Below, one piece after another: positions 6,161-26,599 of a stretch of DNA of 64,000 nucleotides. The DNA lies in NCBI GenBank assembly GCA_934435195.1, contig CAKSAJ010000008.1:18382-82381 (forward strand). Direction: 5' to 3'. Source of the stretch: an uncultured Schaedlerella sp. (GTDB lineage Bacteria > Bacillota > Clostridia > Lachnospirales > Lachnospiraceae). The stretch's first letter is position 1, and each line of letters opens with the position of its first letter. The notes beneath the pieces were generated by a model. That model ran no database searches, was not told the DNA's origin, and saw only the letters and a program-made list of their open reading frames with translations. The translations under genes and the position numbers were made by a program.

Positions 6161-7297
6161 ATGAAATTTAATCTCGAGAATGAAACACAGAAATGGGCAG
6201 AGGAAACTTATGAGAAGTTAAAAACAAAACTGTCAGCGGAGTGTGACAGAATTGGTTCAAAAATTCCATATATTGCAGAAGACGGTGTATACAAGGAGAA
6301 TAAAGCAGAATCAGATATTATCTGGTGGACGAATGGATTCTGGCCGGGTATGCTCTGGCAGATGTACCATGCAACAGGAGAAGAGAAGTACAGAACAGCG
6401 GCAGAAGGCGTTGAGAAAGAACTGGATCAGGCGTTTGACATTTATACAGGACTTCATCATGATGTAGGATTTATGTGGCTTCATTCAGCAGTTGCGGATT
6501 ACAGAATTACAGGAAATGAGCGTTCCAAAGCACGTGGACTTCATGCAGCGCATCTTCTTGCAGGAAGATACAATCCGCGAGGAAGATTTATCCGTTCCTG
6601 GAACAGAGACCGTTCCGGCTGGGTTATTGTGGACAGTATGATGAACATCCAGCTTTTATTCTGGGCAAGAGATATTCTTGGTGATCCAAGATTTGAATAT
6701 GTTGCAATGGACCATGCAGATACAATTATGGAAAAGACAGTCCGAGGGGATGGTTCCTGCAATCATGTGATTGTATTAGATCCAACAAACGGAGTACTGC
6801 TTGACACACCGGGAGGACAGGGATATGAATCCGGTTCATCTTGGTCAAGAGGGCAGACATGGGCAATTTATGGATTTGCTTTAAGTTATCGCTATACAGG
6901 TAAGAAGGAATATCTGGAAACGGCTAAAAAAGTGGCAAATTATTTTATTGCACAGACAGACCAGACCGGACATGTTGCATTAGTTGATTTCCGTGCACCG
7001 AAAGAACCGGTTTACTGGGATTCTACAGCAGCGGTTTGTGCGGCATGTGGATTATTGGAAATTGCAGAGCATGTGGATGAATTTGAAAAACAGTTTTATG
7101 TAGATGCAGCAGTAAAGATGTTGAAAGCAACGGATGAGAGATTCTGTAACTGGGCTCCGGAATATGATTCTATTGTTCAGATGGGATCCGGTTCATATCA
7201 TACAGACCACGATAAACATGTGCCAATTATTTATGGGGATTATTTCTTTATGGAAGCAGTACTTCGATTACTGGATAAAGATATCCTGATTTGGTAG
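6161..7297 (+). CDS. Glycoside hydrolase family 88, unsaturated glucuronyl hydrolase (UGL)-like
   Basis: WTNGFWPGMLWQMY and DVGFMWLHSAV motifs are characteristic of GH88 UGL. The ATG at 6161 has a better SD (aaaggtgg) than the ORF-track start at 6143. Confidence 0.75.
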   Translation: MKFNLENETQKWAEETYEKLKTKLSAECDRIGSKIPYIAEDGVYKENKAESDIIWWTNGFWPGMLWQMYHATGEEKYRTAAEGVEKELDQAFDIYTGLHHDVGFMWLHSAVADYRITGNERSKARGLHAAHLLAGRYNPRGRFIRSWNRDRSGWVIVDSMMNIQLLFWARDILGDPRFEYVAMDHADTIMEKTVRGDGSCNHVIVLDPTNGVLLDTPGGQGYESGSSWSRGQTWAIYGFALSYRYTGKKEYLETAKKVANYFIAQTDQTGHVALVDFRAPKEPVYWDSTAAVCAACGLLEIAEHVDEFEKQFYVDAAVKMLKATDERFCNWAPEYDSIVQMGSGSYHTDHDKHVPIIYGDYFFMEAVLRLLDKDILIW

Positions 7298-7306
7298 GAG
7301 AATGGT

Positions 7307-8107
7307 ATGATTCGATTAATATGTATAGATATTGACGGAACACTTTTGAATAGTTACAAAGAACTTCCGGAGGATAATCGTAAGGCAATCCATTATGCAA
7401 TCCAAAAAGGAGCGATGATTGTATTTGCAACCGGAAGAAGCAGACAAGGTGTTGAGTACTTATTTAAAAGTATTTCCTGTGATGAAAATGCAATTTGTCT
7501 AAACAGTGGATTAATTCTGTATCAGGGCGAAACAATTTATCAGAAGCAGATGAGTGAGCAGGTTGTGAAAAAAGTTATCAATTTGATGGAAAAGTATAAT
7601 TCGCAGCTTTTTTTGACGAGCGAGAACGGCAATATTACTGTGGGAAGTCTTTCAGATAAGTTAAAAGCAGAAATGCAGCAGGGAAGTTTAAAAGGAAACT
7701 ATCGGTTCTGTGAGAATTATGAGGAGCTTCGCGGTGTGGTTTCGCAGACAAAAGTTTTGAAGATGGCGGTACAGGATTTTGAGGAAGAACGATTTGAACA
7801 ACTGTATGGTGAATTGCAAAAGATAAAAGAGGTTTCTGTGTTGCGTTCAGATAAATTTTTTGTAGATATTATTCCTTACGACAGCGGGAAAGAAAAGGGA
7901 GTCGAGATACTTGCACAGTATCTGGGAATTGCGCCGGAGGAACTTCTTTGTATTGGTGACAATGAAAATGATATTGCAATGCTAAGAGGTTCCGGAATTG
8001 GTGTTGCGATGGGGAATGCATCAGAAGAGGTAAAACTTGCGGCAGATTATGTAACTGCGGACAATGACCATGCCGGAGTGGCAGAGGCAATTTATCGTTA
8101 CATTTGA
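7307..8107 (+). CDS. Cof-type HAD-IIB family hydrolase (sugar phosphatase-like)
   Basis: MIRLICIDIDGTLLNS (DxDGT motif I), GDNENDIAMLRGSGIGVAMGNA (motif IV). Confidence 0.7.
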   Translation: MIRLICIDIDGTLLNSYKELPEDNRKAIHYAIQKGAMIVFATGRSRQGVEYLFKSISCDENAICLNSGLILYQGETIYQKQMSEQVVKKVINLMEKYNSQLFLTSENGNITVGSLSDKLKAEMQQGSLKGNYRFCENYEELRGVVSQTKVLKMAVQDFEEERFEQLYGELQKIKEVSVLRSDKFFVDIIPYDSGKEKGVEILAQYLGIAPEELLCIGDNENDIAMLRGSGIGVAMGNASEEVKLAADYVTADNDHAGVAEAIYRYI

Positions 8108-11965: not shown

Positions 11966-12001
11966 ACAGCCTTCCCATTAGATACGGAATGAGAAGGCTG
12001 T
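11966..12001. repeat. Palindromic hairpin element copy 1 (acagccttc-N18-gaaggctgt)
   Basis: 9-bp perfect inverted repeat 18 nt after the GH36 stop. Related in sequence to the hairpin at 13298-13337, sharing the ACAGCC.TCC.ATTAGATA core. Confidence 0.5.
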
Positions 12002-12261
12002 CGGGAAATAGATGATTCTAAATAGGGGTAGATGTGACGCATGTGAGTCTAATCTACCTCTAATATTTTTCCACAAAAAAGACGCTGACTATATTTTAAT
12101 TTTAGTATTGCAATCGATATATTTTTTATGTTAGAGTATAAAAAAGCATATTTCTTTATGAATTCTAAGGTGTTATGCACCATCTATACTCTACAAACAC
12201 ATTTCAGAAATCTATGCTTTGATACCAAAAACAAATGTAAAAAAGCAGAAGAGGACTGAAA

Positions 12262-13287
12262 ATGAAAAGGAATAGAGTACGTCCTCCTGCGAAAGAATGG
12301 GAGGAACCAAAGACGAAACAACAAAATAAAGTAAAACCAGATGCAATTTTGAAGACATTCTGGAGAAATAACGAACGATTTGCGGATTTATTTAATGCCG
12401 TATTGTTTGATGGACAACAGGTGATAGAGGCAGAAGCATTAACAGAGGCTGATACAGATCTTTCATCTTTGTTAAAAATGAATGGACATGCAGAGACAAT
12501 CCAGAAAGTATTTGATGTTGTAAAGAAAACAGCATACGGAGTGGATTTTGTAATCTGGGGATTGGAAAATCAGGACAATGTTCACTATGCGATGCCGCTT
12601 CGGCATATGTTAAATGATTCGCTTGTATATTTGAAAGAATGTAATGAAATTATTGCGGAGAATCGTAGAGAAAAGCAATTAAAATCATCAGGTGAATTCT
12701 TGTCAGGGTTAAAGAGGGCAGATCGTTTACATCCGATAATTAGTATCTGTGTGTATTATGGGGAAGAGGACTGGGATGGACCATTGAGTTTGACAGATAT
12801 GCTGAATATACCGGAGAAATTAAAACTGATGGTGGCAGACTATAAGATGAATCTGTTGCAGGTGAAGAAAAGCGAAAGTTTTCCATTTCATAATCAGGAT
12901 ATAAAAACTGTATTTGAAGTCATACGTCTTATTTATGGTCATGAGTATGAAAAAATTAATACAGTGTATAGAGATAGACCACTGGATACAGAATTGGCAT
13001 TAGTAATTGGTTCAATTACGAAATCACAGAGAATCATTGATCAGGCGTTGGATTTAGAACAGGAGGGAAAACAGATGCAGATGTGCAAAGCGTTGCAGGA
13101 ATTAGAACAACGAGGCATGGAAACCGGATTTACAGAAGGTATAGAATCTGGTAAAAAAGAGTTATTGAGACAGAAAGTAGCAAAGAAACTTGCAAAAGGA
13201 AAGCAATTGGAAGTAATTGCAGATGAGTTAGAAGAGGATATTGCAACTATCCAGACAATTGTAGATGAGATACAAGCAGCAGAGTAA
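12262..13287 (+). CDS. Rpn/YhgA-like family recombination-promoting nuclease / putative transposase
   Basis: PDAILKTFWRNNERFADLFNAVLF resembles the YhgA-like N-terminal HDxxFKxxF motif. VDFVIWGLENQDNVHYAMPLRHM fits the hIEhQs..d..M.RM core. Acidic/K-rich C-terminal tail is typical of the Rpn family. Confidence 0.5.
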   Translation: MKRNRVRPPAKEWEEPKTKQQNKVKPDAILKTFWRNNERFADLFNAVLFDGQQVIEAEALTEADTDLSSLLKMNGHAETIQKVFDVVKKTAYGVDFVIWGLENQDNVHYAMPLRHMLNDSLVYLKECNEIIAENRREKQLKSSGEFLSGLKRADRLHPIISICVYYGEEDWDGPLSLTDMLNIPEKLKLMVADYKMNLLQVKKSESFPFHNQDIKTVFEVIRLIYGHEYEKINTVYRDRPLDTELALVIGSITKSQRIIDQALDLEQEGKQMQMCKALQELEQRGMETGFTEGIESGKKELLRQKVAKKLAKGKQLEVIADELEEDIATIQTIVDEIQAAE

Positions 13288-13297
13288 TTTTACTACC

Positions 13298-13337
13298 AAA
13301 CAGCCATCCTATTAGATATTGAATAGGATGGCTGTTT
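13298..13337. repeat. Palindromic hairpin element copy 2 (16-bp stem aaacagccatcctatt / aataggatggctgttt)
   Basis: Perfect 16-bp inverted repeat with an 8-nt loop, 10 nt after the Rpn stop. Homologous to copy 1, with compensatory changes that keep the stem paired. Confidence 0.5.
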
Positions 13338-13378
13338 AGTAATTTACATTTTATTTACTATATATGAAAGAAATAATA

Positions 13379-14248
13379 TTATGAATTAAACTGGGCATAT
13401 TTCTTCGGAGATATGCCCACTGCTTTTGTAAATGCCTTTAAGTAATTGCTATAGTCATTAAATCCGCACATCTCACATGCTTCGGTCACACTGTATCCCT
13501 GACTGAGCAGAGATTTTGAAAGTGTCAGTCGTTTTGCAGTGATGTATTTATTGATTGTCGTTCCGGTAGCGGCTTTGAATATGCGGCAGATATAGGAACT
13601 GCTCATATAAAAATGCGCCGACAAATCTTCTAAAGTCAAAGGCTCTTTGATATGTGAATTAATATAAGAAAGAATCTCATCCACTTGCGTATGGTATTTG
13701 GATGTTGATTTTTCAGCATCATTTTTTATAGTAGTGGTCCCCTTGTTTTGGAATGTCTGATTTAAAAATACCATCAATTCAAGAAAAACTGCTTTATCTA
13801 ATAAATCTTCACCAATTCCTTCGTTTGATTGAAATTTATGAATAAAATAAATGAATCGATTCTGTTCTTCTGGTGTCAAATGGACACAGTGAGGCATATG
13901 GGTATCTCGAAAACTGAAGCAATGGTTCAGGTCAGTGTTTGGGGTAGAAAGTTGTGTCAGGTAATCCGGGTCAATAGATAGAATAATTCTTTCGTGAGTT
14001 TCCTGATCAATCTGAGTCAAATGATGGCTTTCAAATTGATTGATCAAAAAAATATCGCCGGGATGGATGTCATACAGACAATTATCAATCAGAAATTGTT
14101 TGCCACCGGAAATCGAATAATAGATTTCATAACAATTGTGAATATGCATATCCATGATTTTTTCATCACTATATAAGTGAGCAAATGCAAAAGAATGTGT
14201 GTCGATACAATTTTTCATAGATTCTTTGCATGTAGAACAAGCTTTCAT
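13379..14248 (-). CDS. AraC family transcriptional regulator (cupin-type N-terminal domain plus AraC HTH)
   Basis: C-terminal LTLEDLSAHFYMSSSYICRIFKAATGTTINKYITAKRLTLSKSLL...GFNDYSNYLKAFTKAVGISPKKY is a canonical AraC HTH pair. Start chosen at the internal Met (MKACSTCKE) preceded by aaaggagg. Confidence 0.8.
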   Translation of the reverse strand: MKACSTCKESMKNCIDTHSFAFAHLYSDEKIMDMHIHNCYEIYYSISGGKQFLIDNCLYDIHPGDIFLINQFESHHLTQIDQETHERIILSIDPDYLTQLSTPNTDLNHCFSFRDTHMPHCVHLTPEEQNRFIYFIHKFQSNEGIGEDLLDKAVFLELMVFLNQTFQNKGTTTIKNDAEKSTSKYHTQVDEILSYINSHIKEPLTLEDLSAHFYMSSSYICRIFKAATGTTINKYITAKRLTLSKSLLSQGYSVTEACEMCGFNDYSNYLKAFTKAVGISPKKYAQFNS

Positions 14249-14522
14249 TGGGTTAAACCTCCTTTTCTTTTGGATAAATATACGAATAATATTGCAATGT
14301 TTGAACAAATTGATTCTATATAACATGCAAATCGTGAACTCTTATTTTGATTATACGAGGTATGTTCAAAATATTCAATATTTACATCAACATTTCACAA
14401 GAAAAGGAATAAAGCGAATGGTATAGTATAGTCAAGAGATGAGAAAAAACTCATTAAAAAAGCAGAACTTCATTGTTTAGACAAATCAAATAGCTATTAC
14501 AAAAAATAACAGGAGGATTATC

Positions 14523-15386
14523 ATGGAAGTAAGAACAGCAGCATCACCAAGAGATGTGAAACACTACACAACAGACAGATTGAGAGAGGAATTTTTAATT
14601 CAGAATCTGTTCCAGGCAGACAAGATCAATCTGGTTTACAGCCACATTGACCGTATCATCACAGGAGCAGCAGTACCGGTTCAGGAGAAACTTGCATTGA
14701 CAGCAGGGGATGAACTGAGAGCAGAATATTTCCTTCAGAGAAGAGAAATGGGACTGATCAATATCGGTGGAGATGGAGTTGTGACAGTTGATGGACGCGT
14801 TTATGAAGTAAATGCAAGAGACGGAATGTACATCGGACGTGGATCAAAAGATATTACATTTGAAAGCAAAGATGCTTCATGTCCGGCTAAATTTTATTTG
14901 AACAGTGCTCCGGCACACGTTGCTTACCCAACAGTACATATCAAACTTGAGGGAGAACCTGAAGAAGGTGTTGTGATCGTAAAAGATGAGAACAAAGTGG
15001 AAATGGGAACACTTGAGGATTCTAACCACAGAGTAATCAACAAATATATCGTAACAGGTCAGGTAGATAGCTGCCAGCTTGCTATGGGTATGACAAAACT
15101 TCTTCCGGGAAGCGTATGGAACACAATGCCGGCTCATACACACGACAGACGTATGGAAGTTTACCTGTACTTTGATATGGAAGATGATGCATTTGTAATG
15201 CACTACATGGGAGAGCCACAGGAGACAAGACACATCATTATGCATAATGAAGAAGCTGTTATCTCTCCAAGCTGGTCAATTCACTCAGGATGTGGATCAA
15301 GAGCATACACATTTATCTGGGGAATGTGCGGAGAAAATCAGGACTACGGCGATATGGACAATATCGAGAATAAAGATTTGAGATAA
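14523..15386 (+). CDS. kduI: 4-deoxy-L-threo-5-hexosulose-uronate ketol-isomerase
   Basis: Co-linear with E. coli KduI along its length: VYSHIDRII, GLINIGG, KFYLNSAPAH, NTMPAHTHDRRMEVYLYF, HNEEAVISPSWSIHSG, YTFIWGMCGENQ. Confidence 0.9.
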   Translation: MEVRTAASPRDVKHYTTDRLREEFLIQNLFQADKINLVYSHIDRIITGAAVPVQEKLALTAGDELRAEYFLQRREMGLINIGGDGVVTVDGRVYEVNARDGMYIGRGSKDITFESKDASCPAKFYLNSAPAHVAYPTVHIKLEGEPEEGVVIVKDENKVEMGTLEDSNHRVINKYIVTGQVDSCQLAMGMTKLLPGSVWNTMPAHTHDRRMEVYLYFDMEDDAFVMHYMGEPQETRHIIMHNEEAVISPSWSIHSGCGSRAYTFIWGMCGENQDYGDMDNIENKDLR

Positions 15387-15506
15387 TCATCTTTTATATA
15401 AGAATATAGAAAACGCTCGTTGAGAGTAAATACACAGAAGTATATAAGAATAATAATCCCTAATATATAAACCCAATTATAATAAGAAGAAAGAGAGGAA
15501 TTTAAC

Positions 15507-16301
15507 ATGGTTAATTTTTCATTGGAAGGTAAAATTGCACTTGTAACAGGAGCATCTTACGGAATCGGATTTGGAATCGCATCTGCTTATGCAGAAGCAG
15601 GAGCAACAATCTGCTTTAACGATCTTAGTCAGGAAAAAGTAGATAAGGGAATTGCTGCATACAAAGAAATCGGTGTAGATGCACACGGATATGTATGTGA
15701 TGTAACAGATGAAGCACAGGTTCAGGCAATGGTTGCTAAAATCAACGAAGAAGTTGGTATCATTGATATCCTTGTAAATAATGCAGGAATCATCATGAGA
15801 AAACCAATGCTTGAGATGGAAGCTGATGAGTTCAGAAAAGTAATCGATGTAGATTTGAACGCTCCATTCATCGTTTCCAAAGCAGTTATTCCGGGAATGA
15901 AAGAAAAAGGACACGGAAAAATTATCAACATCTGTTCTATGATGAGTGAGCTTGGACGTGAGACTGTATCTGCTTATGCAGCAGCAAAAGGTGGATTGAA
16001 AATGCTTACAAGAAATATCTGTTCTGAGTATGGTGAGTACAATATTCAGTGTAATGGTATTGGACCTGGATACATTGCAACACCACAGACAGCACCACTG
16101 CGTGAGAGACAGGCAGACGGAAGCAGACATCCATTTGACCAGTTCATCGTTGCTAAGACACCGGCTGCTCGTTGGGGAACACCGGAAGATCTTCAGGGAC
16201 CAGCAGTATTCCTGGCATCTGATGCATCAGACTTTGTAAACGGACATATCCTGTATGTAGACGGAGGAATCCTTGCATACATCGGAAAACAGCCACAATA
16301 A
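15507..16301 (+). CDS. kduD: 2-dehydro-3-deoxy-D-gluconate 5-dehydrogenase (SDR family)
   Basis: FSLEGKIALVTGASYGIG (Rossmann), IDILVNNAG, GKIINICSM, IGPGYIATP, GPAVFLASDASDFVNGHILYVDGG closely follow KduD/gluconate 5-dehydrogenase. Immediately downstream of kduI. Confidence 0.75.
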   Translation: MVNFSLEGKIALVTGASYGIGFGIASAYAEAGATICFNDLSQEKVDKGIAAYKEIGVDAHGYVCDVTDEAQVQAMVAKINEEVGIIDILVNNAGIIMRKPMLEMEADEFRKVIDVDLNAPFIVSKAVIPGMKEKGHGKIINICSMMSELGRETVSAYAAAKGGLKMLTRNICSEYGEYNIQCNGIGPGYIATPQTAPLRERQADGSRHPFDQFIVAKTPAARWGTPEDLQGPAVFLASDASDFVNGHILYVDGGILAYIGKQPQ

Positions 16302-16336
16302 GAATCCTTTAAAATATCATAAATTGATAATATATG

Positions 16337-16411
16337 AAAATAGCTCATTTTGTCTTGTTATGTACAAAATGAGCTATTTTTAGGGTGCTATGTGACAGCA
16401 CCCTTTTTATA
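16337..16411. terminator. Convergent-gene terminator region between kduD and the downstream Rpn gene (two hairpins)
   Basis: 15-bp inverted repeat aaaatagctcatttt...aaaatgagctatttt at 16337-16380. Second hairpin agggtgct-atgtgac-agcaccct followed by ttttt at 16383-16410. Confidence 0.6.
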
Positions 16412-16421
16412 CAGTAGTATT

Positions 16422-17408
16422 TTATTTTTGTTTCTGTAATTCTTCTTTTAATTTTTGAATTTCTTCATCTTTTTTCTTAAGTTCTTTTTCTTTCTGGTCT
16501 ATATCTTTCTGCATTTCGTCAATCATCAACTTCGTTGTATTCCGGTCTAATTCTATCAACTCTTTCGAAAACATATTCATCACCTCTTCGACATTCCGGC
16601 AAATCTCATAGACTTGTGTGTACATTTCTCTGAAATCCGGATATCGCTCAATAATCTTAATGATTGCTTCCGGTTCATCCATGCACAGAAACGCAAGCCA
16701 TGCTTCCAGCCTTGTTTCTATCTTTATTGCTCTGTTTTCATTGTGCTGAATCTGCTTAAAAATGTCAAGTGGCACGAAGATATATTTTTGTAGTAAATTC
16801 ATTTTTGCTCCTGTGTTTGAAGTTTGTTCAAAACAATGAATATAGTTTTTCGGATATTTGTGGAATACTTCTGGACTTTTTTCGAAAAATACGATTGTGT
16901 ATACCGGTTTGATATCTCTATATGAAAATTTAGTTACCAATCGACTTCGAACTCTTCGATATTGACGTAATAGTAAATCAGCAGAATAACATGCACCTCT
17001 TTCCCCCGGAAACATATAGCCAATTTTCTGAATCTCTAGGTTTACAATGCTTCCATCTTCCAATTGCACTACCATATCTTTAATCAAAAGTGTACATTCA
17101 TCTGCAAGACGTGTACCTTCATTTGGTAACACTTCAATGATTTTTACTTTCTGTTTCAACAATAATGAAAGTAATTCATTCACCCGTTCAGGTGTGCTTT
17201 CCGGATTCAGAATTTCTTTTCCCATAAAATCGTACATCATCTTAATGCCTTTTACACCGGTACAGATATCCAGAAACTCTTGACGGTGATCTGCGTTCCA
17301 ACCATAAAACATTTCTAGTAATTTAGGTTTACTTTTAATTATCTGTTCTACCTCCTCGCGTGTCCGAATTATTGGAAAATATTGTTGTAACTTGTTTTGC
17401 ATAAGCAT
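16422..17408 (-). CDS. Rpn family (PD-(D/E)XK nuclease-type) putative transposase
   Basis: The segment IKDMVVQLEDGSIVNLEIQKIGYMFPGERGACYSADLLLRQY is the conserved core of PD-(D/E)XK transposase-like proteins. C-terminal coiled-coil/KE-rich tail. Confidence 0.55.
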   Translation of the reverse strand: MLMQNKLQQYFPIIRTREEVEQIIKSKPKLLEMFYGWNADHRQEFLDICTGVKGIKMMYDFMGKEILNPESTPERVNELLSLLLKQKVKIIEVLPNEGTRLADECTLLIKDMVVQLEDGSIVNLEIQKIGYMFPGERGACYSADLLLRQYRRVRSRLVTKFSYRDIKPVYTIVFFEKSPEVFHKYPKNYIHCFEQTSNTGAKMNLLQKYIFVPLDIFKQIQHNENRAIKIETRLEAWLAFLCMDEPEAIIKIIERYPDFREMYTQVYEICRNVEEVMNMFSKELIELDRNTTKLMIDEMQKDIDQKEKELKKKDEEIQKLKEELQKQK

Positions 17409-17739
17409 GCCCTCCTTCTTTGACAGAAAAATTTTCTGGAAAAGGAATGACTTTTGCCTACAAACAAACTTTTCAGAGTTTATATAGAAGTTGATTTTGC
17501 CTAAAAAACTATTGGATAATAATGTCTGATTTTCCTATTCCATTTCCTATTTTTCTGTTCAATTGTAATGTGTTCATTTTTGGAATAATTCCCTGATAAA
17601 TAGGGCCCTGAAATGAATGAAATTAATATAGATACTTTTTGCAGACACTGAGAATTTATCTGCGTGTTGAAAGCATAACATAATGTATCTGTAAAAGCAA
17701 GGATAAAATTTATTCCAATCAGCCTACCTTTTTCGTCAT

Positions 17740-17881
17740 GTTACTGTTCACAGTGCCTGTGACCAGCAACGCATCTCGCCATTTTAAATCGCCTTTGGCG
17801 ATGGGCGAGATGCCGTTCAAGATAAAACGTGCATCCTCCGTGCCAATCAGCGTAGTGATTGACACGGGAGTGAACAGTAAC
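17740..17881. other. GC-rich structured intergenic element (nested inverted repeats); possible cis-regulatory RNA or small RNA
   Basis: 12-bp inverted repeat gttactgttcac (17740-17751) / gtgaacagtaac (17870-17881) encloses a 10-12-bp stem (gcatctcgcc at 17771-80 pairing ggcgagatgc at 17804-13) with an inner atcgcc-ttt-ggcgat hairpin. GC content is clearly above the flanks. Confidence 0.3.
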
Positions 17882-17920
17882 TTCGTCATATCCTGTATTC
17901 TATAGTTTTTTAGAAAAAAT

Positions 17921-17980
17921 ATTTGACGAGCGTCAAATAATAACATATAATATTATAAAATTATTTGACGAGCGTCAAAA
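17921..17980 (+). promoter_or_regulatory. Two identical 17-bp operator-like palindromes (aTTTGACGagCGTCAAa) spaced 43 bp apart, overlapping a sigma-A-like promoter (-35 TTGACG, -10 TATAAT)
   Basis: atttgacgagcgtcaaa occurs at 17921-17937 and 17964-17980; each has 6-bp palindromic arms TTGACG/CGTCAA. TATAAT at 17946-17951 lies 16 bp after the first TTGACG. Both copies are upstream of the HipA-like gene, with its SD aaggag at ~17983. Confidence 0.5.
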
Positions 17981-17992
17981 AGAAAGGAGCAA

Positions 17993-18817
17993 ATGATGGA
18001 TAATAAAATAATTATGGAAACACAGGATCTCACATATTTAAAATGGTCGCATATCAGAAGTTCAAGTGGAACAGCAGGAACTTTTTTGAAATCAGAATCC
18101 GTGATAGAAGGGAAAAAGATATATTATAAGTTATCTAATTTTGATTTTGTGAATGGAGTTATAGGGCATGAATGCGTAAATGAGATAATTGTTGATCGTT
18201 TGCTTACTTTATTAGGAGTGGAACATCTTGAATATAAGTTGATACATGCAGATATAGAGATAGAGGGAAAGATATATAACACATATTTGTGTGCTTCTGC
18301 GGACTTTAAAAAACGAGGAGAGAGTAAGATTGCGTTAGACGATTATTATAGAACGAATGCTAAGAAAGAAGAATCACACTATGATTTTTGCGTTCGCTGT
18401 GGTTGGAAAAAGTATATTGATCAAATGATAGCAATTGATTATCTGATACTTAATAGGGATAGACATGGTGCCAATATTGAAATTTTAAGAAATGCAAGAG
18501 CTCGTATATTACGAATTGCACCATTATTTGATCACGGATCGTCATTATTATATTCATGTATCTCTGATGAGGATGTTATGAAATTTGATATTATGGAAGA
18601 CAAACGTTGTCAGAACTTTATTGGTAGTTACTCATGCTATGAAAATTTGAATTTCATAAAAGCTTGTGGAGATGTGTTTGATGGTAAGTTGAAGGAATCT
18701 GATAGAAGTATTATTTTTGAAGGACTGGAAACAATTTTGTCAGAAGTTTTTATTGATAAAATTTGGAATATGATTTATGAGAGGTATAAGATATATGAAA
18801 ATCTTTCAAATAATTGA
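17993..18817 (+). CDS. HipA-like serine/threonine kinase-fold protein (kinase core only, HipT-like length)
   Basis: SSSGTAGTFLKS resembles the HipA P-loop-like motif (SvAGaQeK). ILNRDRHGANIEIL matches the HipA catalytic loop N-x-D-x-H-x-x-N. APLFDHGSSL resembles the HipA aPaYDlvST Mg-binding segment. Confidence 0.55.
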   Translation: MMDNKIIMETQDLTYLKWSHIRSSSGTAGTFLKSESVIEGKKIYYKLSNFDFVNGVIGHECVNEIIVDRLLTLLGVEHLEYKLIHADIEIEGKIYNTYLCASADFKKRGESKIALDDYYRTNAKKEESHYDFCVRCGWKKYIDQMIAIDYLILNRDRHGANIEILRNARARILRIAPLFDHGSSLLYSCISDEDVMKFDIMEDKRCQNFIGSYSCYENLNFIKACGDVFDGKLKESDRSIIFEGLETILSEVFIDKIWNMIYERYKIYENLSNN

Positions 18818-19592
18818 TGAAGAAAATGCATTATTAGCAGGAATTCTTCTTTACTATGAAAAAGCCAAAACTTGTATTATAGAATTGCCGGAATATCTGG
18901 ATGCATGGACAGCTCCTTTGCTGTTTGCAAGCTATGTCAAAAAGAAAATATATACCATTCCACGTGATATTAGCTTTTTATGGGTAAAAGAAAGAGTAAT
19001 TCCAAGCGGAAGACAGAATATCAAAGCGATTCTGACACATCATCATATGGAGACTTACGATGAAATGAAATTTTTAGAAATTTCAGAGGGTAGATGTTCA
19101 CAGGATAGTCTTTATATTAAAAAAATAAATTATTTACCGGATTTTGTTATGGAAAGACAACAGAAAAATATTAAGGAATGCGTTATGTCTGAAAATCATA
19201 CAATATTATGTTTTTTTGCTGATGAGACAATGAAGAAAATTGAATTAGATAGCATGAAAGATATTGAAGAACTGAAAAAGATAGTGAATAATGAACGATT
19301 ATATCAATCAGGAAAAATTGGAACAGGAGGGTATTTTATTACGTTTAATGATTCCATTGATATACAGGCAAGCCTTCTTTACGAAGTTGGGGAAACAATG
19401 CCATTAAAATTGAATGATTTTAAAATGTTTGTACAAAAAAATATTCTTGATACAACAGAAAGCTGTAATTTATTAGAATGTTCTCGGCAAAATATATCCT
19501 ATATGGTAAATCAACAGAAGTTAAATTCTGTAAAAGAAGAAGCAAGGGGAAATCTATATTTAAAAGGTGATGTTTTGCGTACAATGTGGTAA
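18795..19592 (+). CDS. Hypothetical protein with C-terminal helix-turn-helix motif; putative partner/regulator of the HipA-like kinase
   Basis: Start overlaps the upstream stop by ~23 bp (translational coupling). C-terminal TTESCNLLECSRQNISYMVNQQKL fits an HTH (XRE/AlpA-like) pattern. No recognisable N-terminal domain. Confidence 0.45.
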   Translation: MKIFQIIDEENALLAGILLYYEKAKTCIIELPEYLDAWTAPLLFASYVKKKIYTIPRDISFLWVKERVIPSGRQNIKAILTHHHMETYDEMKFLEISEGRCSQDSLYIKKINYLPDFVMERQQKNIKECVMSENHTILCFFADETMKKIELDSMKDIEELKKIVNNERLYQSGKIGTGGYFITFNDSIDIQASLLYEVGETMPLKLNDFKMFVQKNILDTTESCNLLECSRQNISYMVNQQKLNSVKEEARGNLYLKGDVLRTMW

Positions 19593-19616
19593 AGTAAATT
19601 TCCGGAAATAAAAACT

Positions 19617-19668
19617 ATGTCGTAAATAAGTAACCAACCGGCTACTTATTTACGACATGTTTGGTTTT
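19617..19668. terminator. Bidirectional rho-independent terminator between convergent genes
   Basis: 16-bp perfect stem atgtcgtaaataagta / tacttatttacgacat with a 10-nt loop, T-rich on both sides. Confidence 0.6.
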
Positions 19669-20977
19669 ACAGTATATCAATATATTCTCCGGCAAGTGCT
19701 TTGTTCATACTTCTGACAGCGCAGAATTTTCCGCACATGCTGCAAGTATCACTGTGATCATCTTCCGGTTTTCTACTGTCGCGGATCGCTTTGGCAGTTT
19801 CAGGATCTAAAGCACATGCGTACTGAGCATCCCAGTCGAGAACGCGACGGGCATCAGCCATCTTGTCATCAATATCACGTGCACCTGGAATTCCTTTTGC
19901 AATATCGGCTGCATGAGCTGCAATCTTAGAAGCAATGATTCCCTGCTTTGTATCTTCTACATTTGGAAGTGCAAGGTGCTCTGCAGGAGTTACATAGCAG
20001 AGGAATGCAGCACCACTCATAGCAGCTACAGCACCACCGATGGCAGCTGTGATATGGTCATAACCAGGAGCAATGTCTGTTACAAGAGGTCCAAGTACAT
20101 AGAAAGGAGCTCCCATACAGATACTCTGCTGTACTTTCATATTGGCTGCAACCTGATCAAGCGGCACATGTCCAGGACCTTCTACCATAACCTGTACGTT
20201 GTGATCCCAGGCACGTTTTGTAAGTTCTCCCAAACGAACAAGTTCTTCAATCTGGCATACATCTGTTGCATCTGCAAGACATCCAGGACGGCAGGCGTCG
20301 CCAAGAGAAATTGTTACATCATACTCTTCGCAGATATCAAGAATTTCATCATAGTATTCATAGAATGGGTTCTCTTCGCCTGTCATACTCATCCATGCAA
20401 ATACAAGGCTTCCGCCACGGCTTACGATATTCATTTTTCTTTTATGTTTTTTAATCTGCTCGATTGTTTTTCTTGTAATTCCACAGTGAAGTGTGACGAA
20501 ATCAACACCGTCTTCTGCGTGCATACGGATAACATCGATAAAATCATGAGCTGTAAGTGTTGCGAGGTCACGCTGATAGTGGATAACACTGTCATAAACA
20601 GGAACAGTTCCGATCATAACAGGACATTCGCTTGTCAGTTTGCGACGGAAAGGCTGTGTATTACCATGGCTTGAAAGATCCATGATTGCTTCGGCACCTA
20701 AATTTACCGCGCTCATTACTTTTTGCATTTCTACATCATAATCTTTGCAGTCACGTGATACACCAAGATTGACATTGATTTTTGTGCGGAGCATACTTCC
20801 GACACCCTCAGCGCTTAAGCAAGTATGGTTTTTATTTGCACAAATGGCAACCTTACCTTCAGCAACAAGTGTCATAAGTTTATCAACATCCATATGCTCT
20901 TTTTCAGCAACAAGTTTGATTTCAGGAGTGACAATTCCCTTGCGGGCTGCATCCATCTGGGTTGTGTAGTTTCTCAT
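19667..20977 (-). CDS. thiC: Phosphomethylpyrimidine synthase
   Basis: [22 protein letters not shown]-terminus and radical-SAM ThiC C-terminal cysteine cluster [14 protein letters not shown] lies 8 nt upstream of the ATG at 20977. Confidence 0.9.
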
Positions 20978-21281
20978 GTTATTTGCCTCCAATCATTTTA
21001 ATAAAAGAAATAAATTATATTTATGACGTCAGCAAAATACGGACAGCGTACATGAAAGATGAAAGTCTGTAGTGATACAGACCGTTCATCGAAAAACCAA
21101 CACGTCCAGTGAATGAGCATAGAAAAAATAAGAGAAAATATTTCTCTATGAATATGAAATATTTTTGCCAACGCCTACATCAGAGCAATCTGATGATATA
21201 CAAAATCATAAAGCGATTTGCTTTTTTATAGCGGTACAAGGTGGTGTCCCCAATGTATCGCTTTTGGGTCAAACAAAAAAA

Positions 21282-21788
21282 TTATGCTGTAGTGAGCTGT
21301 GACATTACTCCGCTTTTCTGAAGGATTGAAATTAGGATAAATGCAAGAATACTTCCAGCTACAGTAGAAATAAGGAATGGTATTACATAAACGAACAGTC
21401 CTGCAGGTGCAGCACCCATAAGGAAACGGGCAACCGGATAAGCTGCGATACCACCAAGAATACCGGTACCGATAGCTTCAGCAAGACAAGTCAAGCTTAA
21501 GACTTTACATTTTTTGTAAACCAGTCCACAGCACAATGCACCGACCATACTTCCAGGGAATGCCATAAGGCTTCCAAGACCAAGTATATTACGAAGCAGG
21601 CTTGCACAGAAAGCAATGCCAACTCCCCAACCAGGACCAAGTGTAACAGCGGCAAGAATATTGACCATATGCTGAACCGGAGCACATTTACTTCCGGCAA
21701 CTGGAACACTCAAAAAACTTCCTACAACTGCAAGTGCAGTAAGAACTCCGGCAAGCGCTAATTTTTTTGTTTTATTTGTTTCATTCAT
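21282..21788 (-). CDS. thiW: ECF-transporter S component for a thiamine precursor (ThiW-like)
   Basis: ~168-aa polytopic membrane protein KTKKLALAGVLTALAVVGSFLSVPVAGSKCAPVQHMVNILAAVTLGPGWGVGIAFCASLLRN resembling ThiW. Sits between a TPP riboswitch and thiC. Start taken at MNETNK with SD aaaaggag. Confidence 0.55.
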   Translation of the reverse strand: MNETNKTKKLALAGVLTALAVVGSFLSVPVAGSKCAPVQHMVNILAAVTLGPGWGVGIAFCASLLRNILGLGSLMAFPGSMVGALCCGLVYKKCKVLSLTCLAEAIGTGILGGIAAYPVARFLMGAAPAGLFVYVIPFLISTVAGSILAFILISILQKSGVMSQLTTA

Positions 21789-21929
21789 AATCTGAGTCTC
21801 CTTTTCTTTTTCTCTCGGAAATGCGTTTGTCATTTTGAAAAAATTAAGATGAAAAAAGAATCCTCACCTGAGTGAAGATCCTACCAGCTGTCCGAAATAA
21901 AAGAAATGAGATGCGAGGGCATCTCAATC

Positions 21930-22035
21930 AATTACATGGTATACATTCCCTCCGTTGGCATTATCCAAATCAGGTTTAAGTGGGTCGAAACGGAATTACG
22001 CTTCCTCTCAGCCGGTTTTCGCCAGCTCCCCAGTG
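21930..22035 (-). ncRNA. TPP riboswitch (THI element) controlling thiW-thiC
   Basis: Minus strand reads ACUGGGGAGCUGGCGAAAACCGGCUGAGAGGAAGCGUAAUUCCGUUUCGACCCACUUAAACCUGAUUUGGAUAAUGCCAACGGAGGGAAUG. This contains the conserved GGGG..GCUGAGA, ACCC, AACCUGAUCUGGAUAAUGCCAGCGUAGGGA-type blocks. A hairpin plus U-tract follows toward thiW. Confidence 0.8.
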
Positions 22036-22211
22036 ACAATATAAAATTGTTGTCTAGTGATATTATGCATCTATATATATGAAATTGCAAGGGGAATCTT
22101 AAAAAATGGAAACTTTAAGGTAATGGTAATAATTGACAAGTAACGTATTATACTGCATATTCTAAGTAGTAAGTAAAATTCCGCAGATAAGTGAAAGAGA
22201 GGAAGAATGTT

Positions 22212-23117
22212 ATGAAAGAGCTTATATTATCTCAGCAATATGCGTTACTTGCGTTAAACGGACAGGAGAGTCTTCATCCAAGCGTGGCAAAAAATGCGGT
22301 GCTGCGTGCAGTTGCTGCGGCACAGGTGTTGGAAATAGAGATGGGGAAAGCAGATACAAGTTCATTTTCAGAATTTTCTGCATCATTACAGAAAGCAGTG
22401 CAGATAGCAAAGACTTTGAAGAAAAAAGAAGCATCTCAGATTGAGCAAGAAGTGGTAAATGCTCTGAAAGCGGAAGAACTTTTAAAGGAAGTTCCGGATC
22501 TTCTGGGATGTGATATGGATTATGATACATCAGGTATTGAACTGAAGGCATATCTTAGTGATGAGATAAGTTATGTTAGAATAAAAGAAGGTCTTCGTGC
22601 AGAGATTTTAGAGGATGGTCCAATTAGTTTGGAATATGCAGTCTTATTATGGCTTCTTCGTGAGAGTGGTTGTATTCATGATCTGTTTTCTGTATCAGAG
22701 CAGAGTCGTGTAGAAGAGCGTATGACAGAGGCTGCCGCGCAGGATGAACAGTATCGTACACTATGGGAAGCAGAATTCCATAGTATTTTCGAAGGAGCTA
22801 TGAATCGTTTTGTAAAGACAAAGAGTAAATTGTTCAAGAATCCATATTTAGAAGGTGTAAATCTTGCGTTCCCTTATCTTGACAGAAGGAAATCGGTATT
22901 TATAGATATGGTTATTTTGGGGACAAATGTAGCAGACAGAAGAGCTGCGGCTATAGAATATCTGAGTAAAAAAGGATTTACAGTAGAAGAAATAAGAATA
23001 GGCAGTGAGACATTGCTGAAAATAGGAAATATATATTATCGTATATTCCCGATGACAAAAACGGCGTATAAAGTACCGATTCAGGGAGTTAATCTGGTAC
23101 CGGCGTACTGGCAGTAA
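22212..23117 (+). CDS. Hypothetical protein (weak resemblance to GPP34-family N-terminus)
   Basis: ORF with ATG at 22212 after SD agagaggaag. N-terminus LILSQQYALLALNGQE is reminiscent of GPP34 (LAEElLLLAlDD) only; no firm domain call. Confidence 0.35.
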   Translation: MKELILSQQYALLALNGQESLHPSVAKNAVLRAVAAAQVLEIEMGKADTSSFSEFSASLQKAVQIAKTLKKKEASQIEQEVVNALKAEELLKEVPDLLGCDMDYDTSGIELKAYLSDEISYVRIKEGLRAEILEDGPISLEYAVLLWLLRESGCIHDLFSVSEQSRVEERMTEAAAQDEQYRTLWEAEFHSIFEGAMNRFVKTKSKLFKNPYLEGVNLAFPYLDRRKSVFIDMVILGTNVADRRAAAIEYLSKKGFTVEEIRIGSETLLKIGNIYYRIFPMTKTAYKVPIQGVNLVPAYWQ

Positions 23118-23210
23118 GAAAAGGGTGCTGGCATAGCAAGTATTTGAATAGGCAGAAGAGAACCGCCCCGACTCAAATCTAAGTTGAGCCGGGGTGGTTC
23201 TATTTTTCAT

Positions 23211-24056
23211 TTACACACTATGAAATCCCTTACCAATAATCTCACTTGTATTCGATATCAAGATAAACGCTGTTGGCTGATTCTCCTTGATATAGTTACG
23301 AAGTTTGATTGCCTGAGGGCGGTTGAGCGCAGTGAAGATAATATATTTTTCGTTTCCGGTAAATGCACCCTGGGCATCTACAACAGTTGCGCTGCGGTTC
23401 AGTTCATTTACAATGAAATCACAGATTGGTTGTGGATCATCGCATACAACGTTAAAATATTTCGAAAGATTAAAGCTTTCAATAAAGTTGTCGATCATGA
23501 AAGAACGAACGGCAAGTCCGAGGAAGGAGTACAGTCCGGTCTTGATGTCAAATACAAAGCATCCGGCAACTGTAATCAGAATGTCGGATACGAGCAATGC
23601 CCTTCCGATATCGAAACTGCTGTATTTTTTAATAATCATAGCAATGATATCCGTTCCGCCACTTGATGAGCCGATATTAAAAAGAATGGCAGAGCCAAGT
23701 GCAGGGAGTGCGATTGCAAAGCAAAGTTCCAACATCGTCTGGTCTGTCAGAGGATGGGTCATCGGACAGATACGTTCTAAGACAGAAAGTGCAACAGAAA
23801 GCAGAATACTGCAGTAAGCAGTTTTTGCTGCAAATTTTTTACCCAGTACAAAAAATCCAAGTAACAGCAACAGCATATTCATGATAAATGAAAAATCACT
23901 GGCAGATATTTTCCCTGTTTTGGCAACAAGTACGGCAAGACCGGTGATGCCACCAAAAGTAAAATTGTTTGTAAATTTGAAAAAATAAGTTCCAACTGCC
24001 ATAATGAGTGTGCTGACAGTCAGTAAAGTAAAGTGCTTTAGCTTACTTATATTCAT
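23211..24056 (-). CDS. YitT family membrane protein (DUF161 + DUF2179)
   Basis: MNISKLKHFTLLTVSTLIMAVGTYFFKFTNNFTFGGITGLAVL N-terminus and the C-terminal DUF2179-like segment RSATVVDAQGAFTGNEKYIIFTALNRPQAIKLRNYIKE. Confidence 0.7.
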   Translation of the reverse strand: MNISKLKHFTLLTVSTLIMAVGTYFFKFTNNFTFGGITGLAVLVAKTGKISASDFSFIMNMLLLLLGFFVLGKKFAAKTAYCSILLSVALSVLERICPMTHPLTDQTMLELCFAIALPALGSAILFNIGSSSGGTDIIAMIIKKYSSFDIGRALLVSDILITVAGCFVFDIKTGLYSFLGLAVRSFMIDNFIESFNLSKYFNVVCDDPQPICDFIVNELNRSATVVDAQGAFTGNEKYIIFTALNRPQAIKLRNYIKENQPTAFILISNTSEIIGKGFHSV

Positions 24057-24290
24057 ATAAATCCTCCTGAAATTTGCTTATGTTACCTATAAGAATTCAA
24101 AAGAAAATCCTTTTAATTACTGTTTATAAAATGCCATGTGAACAGTAATTTTTTCCATATATCAACCGAATTGTAACGCGAGGATATTTATTTGTCAACG
24201 CAAAATAAAATCGTACGGATAAAAGTGCAGAAAAAGAAAAAAATTTTATGCTATAATAAGAAAAGTGAAAAATTTCGAGGGTGTAAAAGT

Positions 24291-25253
24291 ATGAAAATAG
24301 AGTATCGAATTCAAAAAGATTATATAGAAATTGTACGTTGTTACGGAGTGGATTCCTGCGTAACGCTTCCGGCGCAAATTGACGGATATCCGGTAAAAAA
24401 AGTAGCTGCATATACATTTTCAGCGAGAAAATCACAGGAAGATGCGGATGTACTTACTTATGAAAGTGAAGATGGTCTTTTGTTGGAAGAAAATAATAAA
24501 TTGCTTGCGGGAGTAGAGGTAGAGAAAGTCATCTTTCCGGAGACCGTTGAAGAAATCGGTAATTATATTTTTTATGGCTGTAAGGAATTGCGATATCTGG
24601 AATTTTCCAATACATTAATGAGTATAGGGAGCGGAGCATTTACCGGATGTGGCAAATTGAGTGGATTGAAAGTGCATATGAAGCAGGGAGAGAAATCTTG
24701 TGTGAAAGAGATTCTTGGAGATTTGTGGCAGCGGATAGATGTTACTTTTATATATGGAGAAACAGGGAAAGAGGCAAGATTAGTATTCCCGGAACATTAT
24801 GAGGAAGCGGTAGAAAATACACCGGCAAGAATTTTGTTTACACAACATCATGGAACGGGCAATAATTATCGACAGTGTTTCTATAATAAGGAAATGGATT
24901 ATCGAAAATATGATGAGTTGTTTGTTTTGGCAAAAGCACAGGATAAACAAGAAGTATTGGTCGATATGGTGTTTAACAGGTTAGAATATCCGTATGATTT
25001 GACAGATAAAAACAAAGATGAGTATAAAGACTATATGTTGGAACATTTTGTACAGTGGTCAGAGATTTTAGTGGAGCAAGATGCGATTGAACGATTGCAA
25101 TTTTTAAGTAAACAAAGTCTTTGGAATCGGGAGATGTTGGACATAGCTATTATGGAAGCCTCTGAAAAGAAAAGGGGAGAAACATTAAGCTTTCTTATGA
25201 ACGAAAAACAGAGCTTGTATCCGGAGCGGAAGAAGAAAACGTTTGAATTATAA
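24291..25253 (+). CDS. Hypothetical protein with BspA-type leucine-rich repeat (LRR_5-like) segment
   Basis: IPETVEEIGNYIFYGCKELRYLEFSNTLMSIGSGAFTGCGKLSGL fits the LRR_5 pattern. First gene of a three-gene block with the VWA and AAA genes (12-bp and 75-bp gaps). Confidence 0.4.
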   Translation: MKIEYRIQKDYIEIVRCYGVDSCVTLPAQIDGYPVKKVAAYTFSARKSQEDADVLTYESEDGLLLEENNKLLAGVEVEKVIFPETVEEIGNYIFYGCKELRYLEFSNTLMSIGSGAFTGCGKLSGLKVHMKQGEKSCVKEILGDLWQRIDVTFIYGETGKEARLVFPEHYEEAVENTPARILFTQHHGTGNNYRQCFYNKEMDYRKYDELFVLAKAQDKQEVLVDMVFNRLEYPYDLTDKNKDEYKDYMLEHFVQWSEILVEQDAIERLQFLSKQSLWNREMLDIAIMEASEKKRGETLSFLMNEKQSLYPERKKKTFEL

Positions 25254-25264
25254 AAGAGGAGGGG

Positions 25265-26599
25265 ATGCAGATGGACAATCAAGGATCAGGAACGCTGGAT
25301 GCGACCAGTGAACTTGCTGAACAATTAGAGCGGATCGGGACACAAATTTTGAATGCATCCCGTGCAGAATTATATTTCGGTATGCGTTTTTTGGATGTGG
25401 CTTTAAGCAGTTTTGATTATCAGATGAATACGGAGATTGCACCATTTGGAACGGACGGAAGAAGTATCTTTTACCATCCGCAATTATTGGGTGGAATGTA
25501 CCGAAAAAATCGAATTCAGGTTAATCGGGGATATTTGCATATGGTATATCATTGCATTTTCCGTCATATCGTAAAACCTGTAAATGGAAATGTGTGGGAG
25601 CTAAGCTGTGATATTGCGGTAGAACATCTGGTGGACGCCAATTATCACAGGTCGGTGAGGTCTTCTAAGAGTTTGCTGCGGCGTGAAACATATAGGCGGT
25701 TGGAGCAGGAGGCAAATGGAAAAGTGCTGAATGCGGAACGCATTTTTAAGATTCTGCAAAGCTGGAATCTCGGAGAAAAGGAACTGGAGAAGCTGGAACA
25801 GGAATTTTATGTGGACGATCATCGATATTGGGAGAGTCAGAAACCAAACCAACAGCCAGATCCAATATTGAATCAGAAGTGGCAGGACATCAATGAACAA
25901 ATGGAAACAGATTTGGAGACATTTTCGAAAGAAGCATCACAAGAAAATGGTGATTTCATTGGACAGATAAAAATAGAGAATAGAGAACGGCATGACTACA
26001 AATCATTTCTTAGAAAGTTTTCTGTGTTCAGGGAAGAAATGGGAATCGACCCGGATTCTTTCGATTATAATTTTTATAGTTATGGATTATCATTGTATGG
26101 AAATATGCCTTTGATAGAACCACAGGAAACAAAAGAAGTAAAGAAAATAGAAGAGTTTGCGATTGTTATAGATACTTCCATGTCGTGTTCCGGTGAACTG
26201 GTACAAAAATTTCTGGAGGAGACTTATAGCGTTCTAAAGGAAAATGAAAGTTTTTTTAAGAAAATAAATGTGCATATTATTCAGTGTGATGAGCAGGTGC
26301 ATTCTGACTGTAAGATTACAAGTGAAGAGGACTTAAAAGAATACATGGAACATATGGAATTGTATGGTCAAGGAGGGACAGACTTTCGTCCGGCATTTGA
26401 ATATGTGGAGCAGTTAGTCAGAGAAAAAGAGTTTCATGACTTGCGTGGATTGATATATTTTACAGATGGGTATGGCATCTATCCAAATAGAATGCCGCCA
26501 TTTAAAACAGCATTTGTTTTTATGCAGGAAGATTATACAGACGTAGATGTTCCTGTGTGGGCAATCAAACTAATATTAAGTGAGGATGAATTAGGATAG
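25265..26599 (+). CDS. DUF2201-type putative metallopeptidase domain + VWA domain protein
   Basis: Central/C-terminal VWA with MIDAS-like DTSMSCSG and GGTDFRPAF. N-terminal region (YHPQLLGGMYRKNRIQVNRGYLHMVYHCIFRHI) resembles the DUF2201_N putative peptidase domain. Partner of the downstream AAA ATPase. Confidence 0.6.
   Translation: MQMDNQGSGTLDATSELAEQLERIGTQILNASRAELYFGMRFLDVALSSFDYQMNTEIAPFGTDGRSIFYHPQLLGGMYRKNRIQVNRGYLHMVYHCIFRHIVKPVNGNVWELSCDIAVEHLVDANYHRSVRSSKSLLRRETYRRLEQEANGKVLNAERIFKILQSWNLGEKELEKLEQEFYVDDHRYWESQKPNQQPDPILNQKWQDINEQMETDLETFSKEASQENGDFIGQIKIENRERHDYKSFLRKFSVFREEMGIDPDSFDYNFYSYGLSLYGNMPLIEPQETKEVKKIEEFAIVIDTSMSCSGELVQKFLEETYSVLKENESFFKKINVHIIQCDEQVHSDCKITSEEDLKEYMEHMELYGQGGTDFRPAFEYVEQLVREKEFHDLRGLIYFTDGYGIYPNRMPPFKTAFVFMQEDYTDVDVPVWAIKLILSEDELG

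Follow-up and report, generated by a model that had tools for sequence, protein, structure and literature searches.

Hip kinases are the classic persistence toxins of bacteria, and their split relatives HipBST and hipIN are under study as toxin-antitoxin systems or candidate defence systems. GltX is the target listed for HipA and TrpS that for HipT (PMC8262856, Table 1), and HipS was shown to inhibit HipT at the Gly-rich loop through its residue Trp65 (PMC10627512). A survey of the superfamily distinguished ten Hip organisations, including kinase-first arrangements with a downstream HipS-like partner, among them hipIN with a HIRAN partner (HipN, in which a HipS-like domain is followed by HIRAN), hipJS with HipS alone, and hipL, in which all parts are fused (Gerdes et al., 2021; PMC8262856). 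The PDC-M03 system, in which a protein with a HipA domain is paired with one that has a HIRAN domain (PMC13245101; PMC11706625), is the module listed by Gerdes et al. as hipIN. Here we describe a related but differently built two-gene module in a 64-kb stretch of DNA (the window) from an uncultured Schaedlerella sp. of the Lachnospiraceae (GenBank assembly GCA_934435195.1, contig CAKSAJ010000008.1). An earlier note on this stretch had read the module as a candidate non-canonical toxin-antitoxin or defence system, consisting of a HipA-like kinase and a partner with a helix-turn-helix (HTH) behind twin palindromic operators. Our results support this overall reading, and nothing that the note had named as grounds for abandoning it was found.

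In the module region examined (17900-19600) we found both open reading frames (ORFs) on the same strand, together with the promoter and the palindromes that the note had placed before them, and in our judgement they probably constitute a self-contained 1.68-kb Hip-type toxin-antitoxin cassette extending from 17917 to 19593. Gene A (17993-18817, plus strand) encodes a short HipA-superfamily Ser/Thr kinase of 274 amino acids (aa), the putative toxin, which lacks the N-subdomain 1 of HipA; a second ATG at 17996, with better spacing to the ribosome-binding site, would give the 273-aa form that is carried by database entries. Gene B (18795-19592, plus strand) encodes a three-domain putative antitoxin and autorepressor of 265 aa, one residue shorter than noted earlier. 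Its start codon lies 23 nt within A, in agreement with the coupling to the kinase gene that the note had described, and a Shine-Dalgarno-like GAGAGG (18779-18784) is present inside the coding sequence of A; an alternative in-frame ATG at 18777 would extend B to 271 aa, and most homologues begin with MKI(F/Y). The kinase gene is preceded by a ribosome-binding site, AAAGGAG (17983-17989, plus strand), read directly from the sequence, and by a Sigma-70-type promoter (17923-17951, plus strand) with 11 of 12 consensus matches, in which TTGACG (-35) and TATAAT (-10, 17946-17951) are separated by a 17-nt spacer and which is the top promoter-like site of the region. Between promoter and gene A there is no HipB-like ORF, as the note had observed, and the next gene upstream is of the PDDEXK_2 type and divergently oriented. 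Downstream, a hairpin with a 19-bp stem (19617-19658) was found by terminator detection on the minus strand between the convergent stop codons of B and thiC, and since a T-rich tract also follows it 3' on the plus strand, it probably terminates transcription in both directions and marks the end of the operon.

Compared with the described Hip systems, the module resembles hipIN most closely, in that the first gene encodes a short kinase devoid of N-subdomain 1 and the second a partner with a HipS-like N-terminus and a nucleic-acid-binding C-terminus. Moreover, hipIN/PDC-M03 is the only family with significant sequence matches, albeit remote ones, to both A and B. Unlike hipIN, however, B carries a DUF2442 domain and an HTH_17 winged helix in place of HIRAN, and the module is accompanied by a conserved pair of sequence-specific operators. 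With hipBST of E. coli O127:H6 and Legionella pneumophila it shares a kinase lacking N-subdomain 1, serines preceding the Gly-rich loop that recall the S-psi-S motif of HipT, and a predicted autoregulation of the operon by a separate DNA-binding function. In contrast to the order hipB, hipS, hipT, however, there are two genes instead of three with the kinase first, the HipS-like and DNA-binding parts are fused and placed after the kinase with an additional DUF2442, and the DNA-binding domain is of the MerR/Xis type rather than a HipB helix-turn-helix; apart from the catalytic loop, sequence similarity of the module to HipT and HipS is undetectable. Likewise, the D-x-H-x-x-N and Mg-binding D motifs align with those of HipA in hipBA of E. 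coli K-12, with which the module also has promoter-overlapping palindromic operators and overlapping genes in common, whereas HipA contains N-subdomain 1 in cis, a small HTH protein, HipB, is encoded upstream, and the gene order is opposite.

Outside the Hip operons proper, the closest solved structure is that of CtkA (JHP940) from Helicobacter pylori (PDB 3AKJ, 3AKK and 3AKL), which is likewise a short HipA-like kinase, but for which we know of no reported HipS-like or HTH partner. Proteins of the NE0471 type (PDB 2AUW), which combine DUF2442 with an HTH, have no HipS-like domain, and neither do the DUF4160/DUF2442 toxin-antitoxin pairs, in which the partner of the DUF2442 protein is a DUF4160 protein and not a kinase. 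Identification of B as a HipN was ruled out by the lack of HIRAN, and its assignment as a Stl-like HipR or a resolvase-like HipP was dismissed because no such fold was matched and the HTH is C-terminal and of the MerR/Xis type. A text search of the four supplementary files of Gerdes et al. (2021) for six Lachnospiraceae-related names returned none of them, and literature searches for a fused HipS/HTH protein, HipA with DUF2442, CtkA with an antitoxin, and PDC-M03 yielded no description of this architecture. The fusion of a HipS-like domain to DUF2442 and an HTH is new and lies outside the ten published Hip organisations. The earlier note had found that the kinase-first order with its HTH partner matches none of the hipBA, hipBST and YjjJ arrangements known to it; kinase-first operons with HipS-like partners are, however, on record as hipIN and hipJS (PMC8262856), so that the layout is a variant and not without precedent.

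Several lines of evidence identify A as a Hip-type kinase. The catalytic hallmarks that had been recognized in the sequence are there and show next to no variation within the family: S24, S25, G26, T27, G29 and K33, N154-R-D156-R-H158-G-A-N161, and P177-L-F-D180-H-G. The catalytic and Mg-binding residues and the loop R22-S-S-S-G-T-A-G-T-F-L-K33 reach a conservation of at least 97% among 81 sequences. In a profile alignment (hhalign) with E. coli HipA only the catalytic and Mg loops align (E 0.047), with D156, H158, N161 and D180 of A corresponding to D309, H311, N314 and D332 of HipA. The Gly-rich loop R22-K33 falls in a low-confidence and probably flexible part of the structural model, and its equivalence to S150 of HipA and S57/S59 of HipT is one of pattern only, not of alignment. 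The AlphaFold2 model of A as a whole has a predicted local distance difference test score (pLDDT) of 85.8 and a predicted template modelling score (pTM) of 0.86. When this model was compared with known structures by Foldseek, CtkA was the best match (E 2.5e-7, probability 1.0, template modelling score 0.61), followed by HipT (E 3e-4 to 1e-3), while eukaryotic-type kinases were far behind (E 4e-3 or weaker). CtkA was also the sole PDB sequence match of A (E 0.0029 with the single sequence, 3.7e-4 with a profile). Among the PADLOC models, A of the window matches seven PDC-M03A models (best E 2.3e-10, residues 12-207), and all 43 aligned homologues match six PDC-M03A models, which are of the HipI type (best E 2.4e-12), without a match to any other PADLOC family. 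In addition, 31 of the 43 family members match Pfam HipA_C weakly, at E <=0.01 but below its threshold (best E 2.7e-4, about the level reached by the likewise sub-threshold window copy), and 11 match Pfam PI3_PI4_kinase. The absence of the HipA N-terminal subdomain, which makes A HipT-like in size as the note had stated, was borne out. Because fold, profile and catalytic-residue evidence agree, A can be regarded as a real, though very divergent, member of the HipA superfamily and is very probably a Hip-type kinase, whose nearest relatives, as judged by sequence, are the HipI-type kinases and, as judged by the predicted fold, CtkA and HipT.

For B, the AlphaFold2 model (pLDDT 88, pTM 0.79) comprises three domains, which we read, from this model and from the profile matches, as a HipS-like domain (residues 1-112; nt 18795-19130, plus strand), a DUF2442 domain (113-205; 19131-19409, plus strand) and a MerR/Xis-type winged helix, HTH_17 (206-265; 19410-19589, plus strand). 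The B family is large, with 847 clusters at 50% identity (E <=0.001) and full-length members mostly of about 265-272 aa, and we profiled 91 diverse members that are 25-47% identical to B of the window. The Pfam models HTH_17 and DUF2442 were matched by 70 and 38 of these, respectively (best E 3e-9 in both cases), and the PADLOC model PDC-M03B by 63 (best 2e-8). The match of the window copy to PDC-M03B (E 4.5e-4) places residues 63-111 on positions 71-120 of the 232 positions of the hidden Markov model (HMM). The individually listed matches, of the window copy and of diverse members, are collinear, starting at B residues 61-69 and HMM positions 68-75; they cover mainly residues 61-115 of B, with two members reaching about 145-162, and the matched part is the N-terminal, HipS-like half of the model. 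A HipS fold was recovered for residues 1-112, with weak Foldseek support, and this domain is the best conserved part of B (column conservation 0.73, compared with 0.65 for the winged helix and 0.57 for DUF2442). Invariant within it are W63, R67, P70, R73-Q74-N75 and C101-x-Q103-D104, and W63 together with P70-x-x-R73-Q74-N75 might include a counterpart of HipS Trp65. HIRAN was absent among the 10 Pfam families matched by the 91 members, NCBIfam holds no model for either A or B, and searches of B against PDB sequences by phmmer and hmmsearch gave chance-level matches only. The suggestion that the first 200 residues of the partner could form a HipS-like or sensor domain is supported in its HipS-like part, but this stretch consists of two domains, of which the second is DUF2442; the clear C-terminal HTH was confirmed, as HTH_17 of the MerR/Xis type and not XRE, and B turned out not to be a housekeeping protein, a case with which the note had reckoned. 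As a side observation, 54 of the 91 members match the 60-residue PADLOC model mad1 of the MADS system via the winged helix, and a few neighbouring genes in other loci match mad2, mad3 or mad8; the mad1 matches could be generic HTH matches or a real MADS link.

The two operators upstream of gene A are a conserved feature of the family. Operator O1, the 18-bp palindrome ATTTGACG-AG-CGTCAAAT at 17921-17938, overlaps the -35 hexamer and provides its TTGACG, and O2, ATTTGACG-AG-CGTCAAAA at 17963-17980, follows at a distance of 42 bp between the -10 box and the ribosome-binding site, a position that would correspond to about +5 to +20 of the transcript. The palindrome core TTGACGAGCGTCAA occurs at 17923-17936 and 17965-17978, and its extended form at both operators is ATTTGACG-AG-CGTCAAA(T/A). 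The promoter-overlapping twin palindromes TTGACG-AG-CGTCAA of the earlier note are thus present, but one base off the positions it implied. With one mismatch allowed, the pattern ATTTGACGAGCGTCAAA has two sites in the 64 kb, compared with 0.00 expected from 100 shuffles, and the only further matches in the window with two mismatches are at 7613 and 29943. We then scanned 150 nt upstream of A in 79 loci for TTGACG-NN-CGTCAA with up to two mismatches. The motif ATTTGACG-NN-CGTCAAAT was found in 77 of these loci; 68 contain at least two copies, nine contain one, and in the two loci with none a site lies just past the 150-nt limit. The spacing between O1 and O2 has its mode at 42 bp and is typically 41-46 bp, a TATAAT-like -10 box lies between both operators in most loci, and the central dinucleotide is variable, the family consensus with flanks being tATTTGACG-NN-CGTCAAATa. 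Outside the regions upstream of A, 24 operator sites were found in the remaining 833 kb. An autoregulatory layout, with two operators flanking the -10 box, was hence apparent in silico in 68 of the 79 loci. The predicted recognition helix of B, C229-S-R231-Q232-N233-x-x-Y236, is invariant, and an invariant recognition helix together with an invariant half-site, across proteins that are 46-77% identical, is the expected signature of a sequence-specific dimeric autorepressor. B is accordingly predicted, with good confidence on these sequence grounds, to bind the palindromes.

Some variation on this theme was also observed. Three loci (L031, L033 and L039) have more than two operators in the promoter, namely three or four copies at about 60-180 nt upstream of gene A, and perfect operator copies of 14-18 bp are located away from the module's own promoter in L051 (position 7792), L055 (1741 and 8412) and L042 (4770). 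L055 additionally contains a second, partial B-like ORF (6428-6727) that matches residues 166-265. It may be that B-type repressors also regulate other genes or that there are orphan relatives.

When one genome per species was scanned, no fewer than 533 relatives of A came to light, and the family is present in more than 500 species-level genomes, almost all of gut or rumen Lachnospiraceae; the best 80 loci, which were kept, are likewise almost all from Lachnospiraceae. In all 80, B directly follows A, mostly with an overlap of 10-19 nt in tblastn coordinates, as the note would have it for a genuine pair, and B evolves faster than A (mean conservation 0.66 and 0.76, respectively). When window positions 12000-26000 were compared with all loci by blastn, homology started at 17916-17922 and ended at 19567-19593 in most distant loci, and in a minority it started only around the start codon of A (17993-18024). 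A contig of the same species (L082, 98.6% identity) is collinear with the window from 17917 to 25998, including thiC and thiW, and upstream of 17917 it is wholly different, with a KDGP aldolase cluster in place of kduI, kduD and PDDEXK_2, which puts a strain breakpoint within a few bases of O1. The flanking proteins of the window do not recur beside the pair, except in this contig and for a kduD-type SDR homologue, which four loci contain at some position. There is no third conserved gene, and the view of the module as cargo of the PDDEXK_2 neighbour was discarded, that gene being absent from all 88 related loci. The 145 nearest neighbours fall into 124 clusters, and 136 of the nearest neighbours match 144 Pfam families, the majority of which are families of transporters, regulators or metabolic enzymes; their PADLOC matches are mostly to generic XRE-type HTH models, with scattered single matches to PDC and MADS models, and metagenome-contig neighbourhoods with annotation follow the same pattern of unrelated neighbours. 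The defence-island distribution envisaged by the earlier note did not materialize, since there was no enrichment among these 136 immediate neighbours. No real phage copy of the module was found, and there is one plasmid copy only, on pNP95 of Pseudobutyrivibrio xylanivorans (L089, 4001-5617), in which the kinase is intact (62.6% identity) and the annotated partner, about 210 nt from the kinase, has just 193 aa; both genes are labelled "hypothetical protein" in RefSeq, and this copy may represent a decaying module. In summary, the cassette is accessory in its distribution and not visibly located within defence islands or mobile elements, and its occurrence at unrelated chromosomal sites in many Lachnospiraceae fits an accessory element of the toxin-antitoxin or abortive-infection kind.

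Against the reading of the module as a Hip-type toxin-antitoxin cassette several results have to be weighed. The kinase fold anticipated by the earlier note was recovered for A, but its match to Pfam HipA_C (PF07804) stays below the gathering score (18.2 vs 30.5 bits, E 0.002, residues 145-205). None of the 91 members of the B family matches Couple_hipA at E <=0.01, and hhalign comparisons of B profiles with E. coli HipA were not significant, for which reason an alignment by eye of the B N-terminus with N-subdomain 1 of HipA was not used as evidence. Furthermore, the hipIN/PDC-M03 pair, to which the module is tied by sequence, is itself only a prediction, and CtkA, the closest structural relative of A, has to our knowledge not been described as the toxin of a toxin-antitoxin system. 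The module thus falls outside hipIN and hipBST as well as, at their curated thresholds, the Pfam HipA_C and Couple_hipA models, yet by analogy it would clearly work like these systems.

In the mechanism that we propose, which for A is modelled on HipA and HipT, the kinase would phosphorylate an essential component of translation and thereby arrest growth. The HipS-like domain of B would dock beside the Gly-rich loop of A and keep the kinase inactive, as suggested by fold and homology, and such an inhibition of A by the N-terminal domain of B appears reasonably likely to us. The C-terminal winged helix would bind both 18-bp palindromes, presumably as a dimer, and with O1 on the -35 box and O2 at the transcript start this conserved anatomy would result in self-repression of the operon. 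The spacing of 42 bp, about four helical turns, would bring both dimers to one face of the DNA, so that cooperativity is possible. The central DUF2442, a domain that has been described as common in antitoxins, probably serves in dimerisation, partner binding or signal sensing, although any such role is speculative. The kinase would then become free whenever B is lost, titrated away or released by a trigger. B would in this way merge the jobs of HipS and HipB of hipBST in one chain after the kinase, and the module is probably best viewed as a type II toxin-antitoxin-like system with both functions fused in a single downstream protein.

The same molecular anatomy could also serve a different biological role with a different trigger. 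In an anti-phage abortive-infection system, B would hold the kinase inactive until a phage cue is sensed by the DUF2442/DNA-binding part, whereupon translation would be shut down. Activation by phage has been proposed for hipIN and hipL (Gerdes et al., 2021; PMC8262856), the only PADLOC system matched by A and B is the candidate defence system PDC-M03, the cassette is accessory with flanks that are unrelated between genomes, and a few neighbours match PDC or MADS models. However, PDC-M03 is a candidate only, HIRAN, the proposed DNA-end sensor, is absent here, the neighbour census is mostly of housekeeping genes with largely generic XRE-type PADLOC matches, and neither a real phage copy nor more than one plasmid copy was found; we consider this role possible but rather unlikely. 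A more specific version is that B acts as sensor, inhibitor and repressor in a single chain, in which the DUF2442/winged-helix part either responds to a phage or DNA-borne cue or is drawn away from the kinase by DNA binding, setting free a Hip kinase whose target might be new. We put this forward as a tentative and somewhat doubtful idea; if true, the cassette would be a previously unrecognised abortive-infection system.

Two further explanations were considered. The pair could be a non-toxic signalling module, in which the kinase phosphorylates B or another regulator and thereby tunes the palindrome promoters in a one-step switch. The perfect operators located off the own promoter in L051, L055 and L042 hint at a small regulon of this kind, and B is much bigger than a usual antitoxin. 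Nevertheless, close operator matches in the window are confined to the two at the promoter of the module itself, the overlapping genes, autoregulatory layout, faster-evolving partner and free-floating cassette are typical of toxin-antitoxin systems, and every Hip kinase characterised with a HipS or HipB partner is a toxin (PMC8262856; PMC10627512), which makes a non-toxic switch improbable. Alternatively, A could be a CtkA-like effector kinase acting on host cells or other bacteria, with B merely as a transcriptional regulator. While A has its best match in CtkA, both by structure and among PDB sequences, the two share only 15-17% identity, the highly conserved HipS-like domain on the regulator would be left unexplained, and the neighbours are unrelated housekeeping genes, so that an effector function seems very improbable. 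A toxin-antitoxin-like cassette in which B both neutralises the kinase and represses the operon is the reading that we prefer.

The surroundings of the cassette in the window include a few further features. Next to the breakpoint at 17917, the PDDEXK_2 gene (16422-17408, minus strand) encodes a PD-(D/E)XK 'transposase' (E 6.8e-15), followed by about 500 nt without a recognisable gene (17409-17916); a 75-aa ORF at 17719-17946 (minus strand) has no Pfam match. The presence of PDDEXK_2 at the breakpoint, together with the differing left flank in the same-species contig, points to a local rearrangement hotspot. On the other side, thiW (21282-21833) has a thiamine pyrophosphate (TPP) riboswitch upstream (21930-22042, minus strand; 59.1 bits, E 4.5e-10), and none was detected before the adjacent thiC (19667-20992). 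Two other ORFs, of 308 aa (22191-23117, plus strand) and 341 aa (12262-13287, plus strand), have no Pfam match at E <=0.001.

The cassette belongs to a large unannotated family, neither protein of which is recognised by the curated thresholds of Pfam or by NCBIfam, and which is abundant in the Lachnospiraceae, dominant and poorly tractable commensals of gut and rumen. With neutralisation and autorepression physically coupled in B, the family would offer a natural system in which to study the communication between HipS-type inhibition and DNA binding, and its conserved 18-bp operator provides a ready probe for binding experiments.

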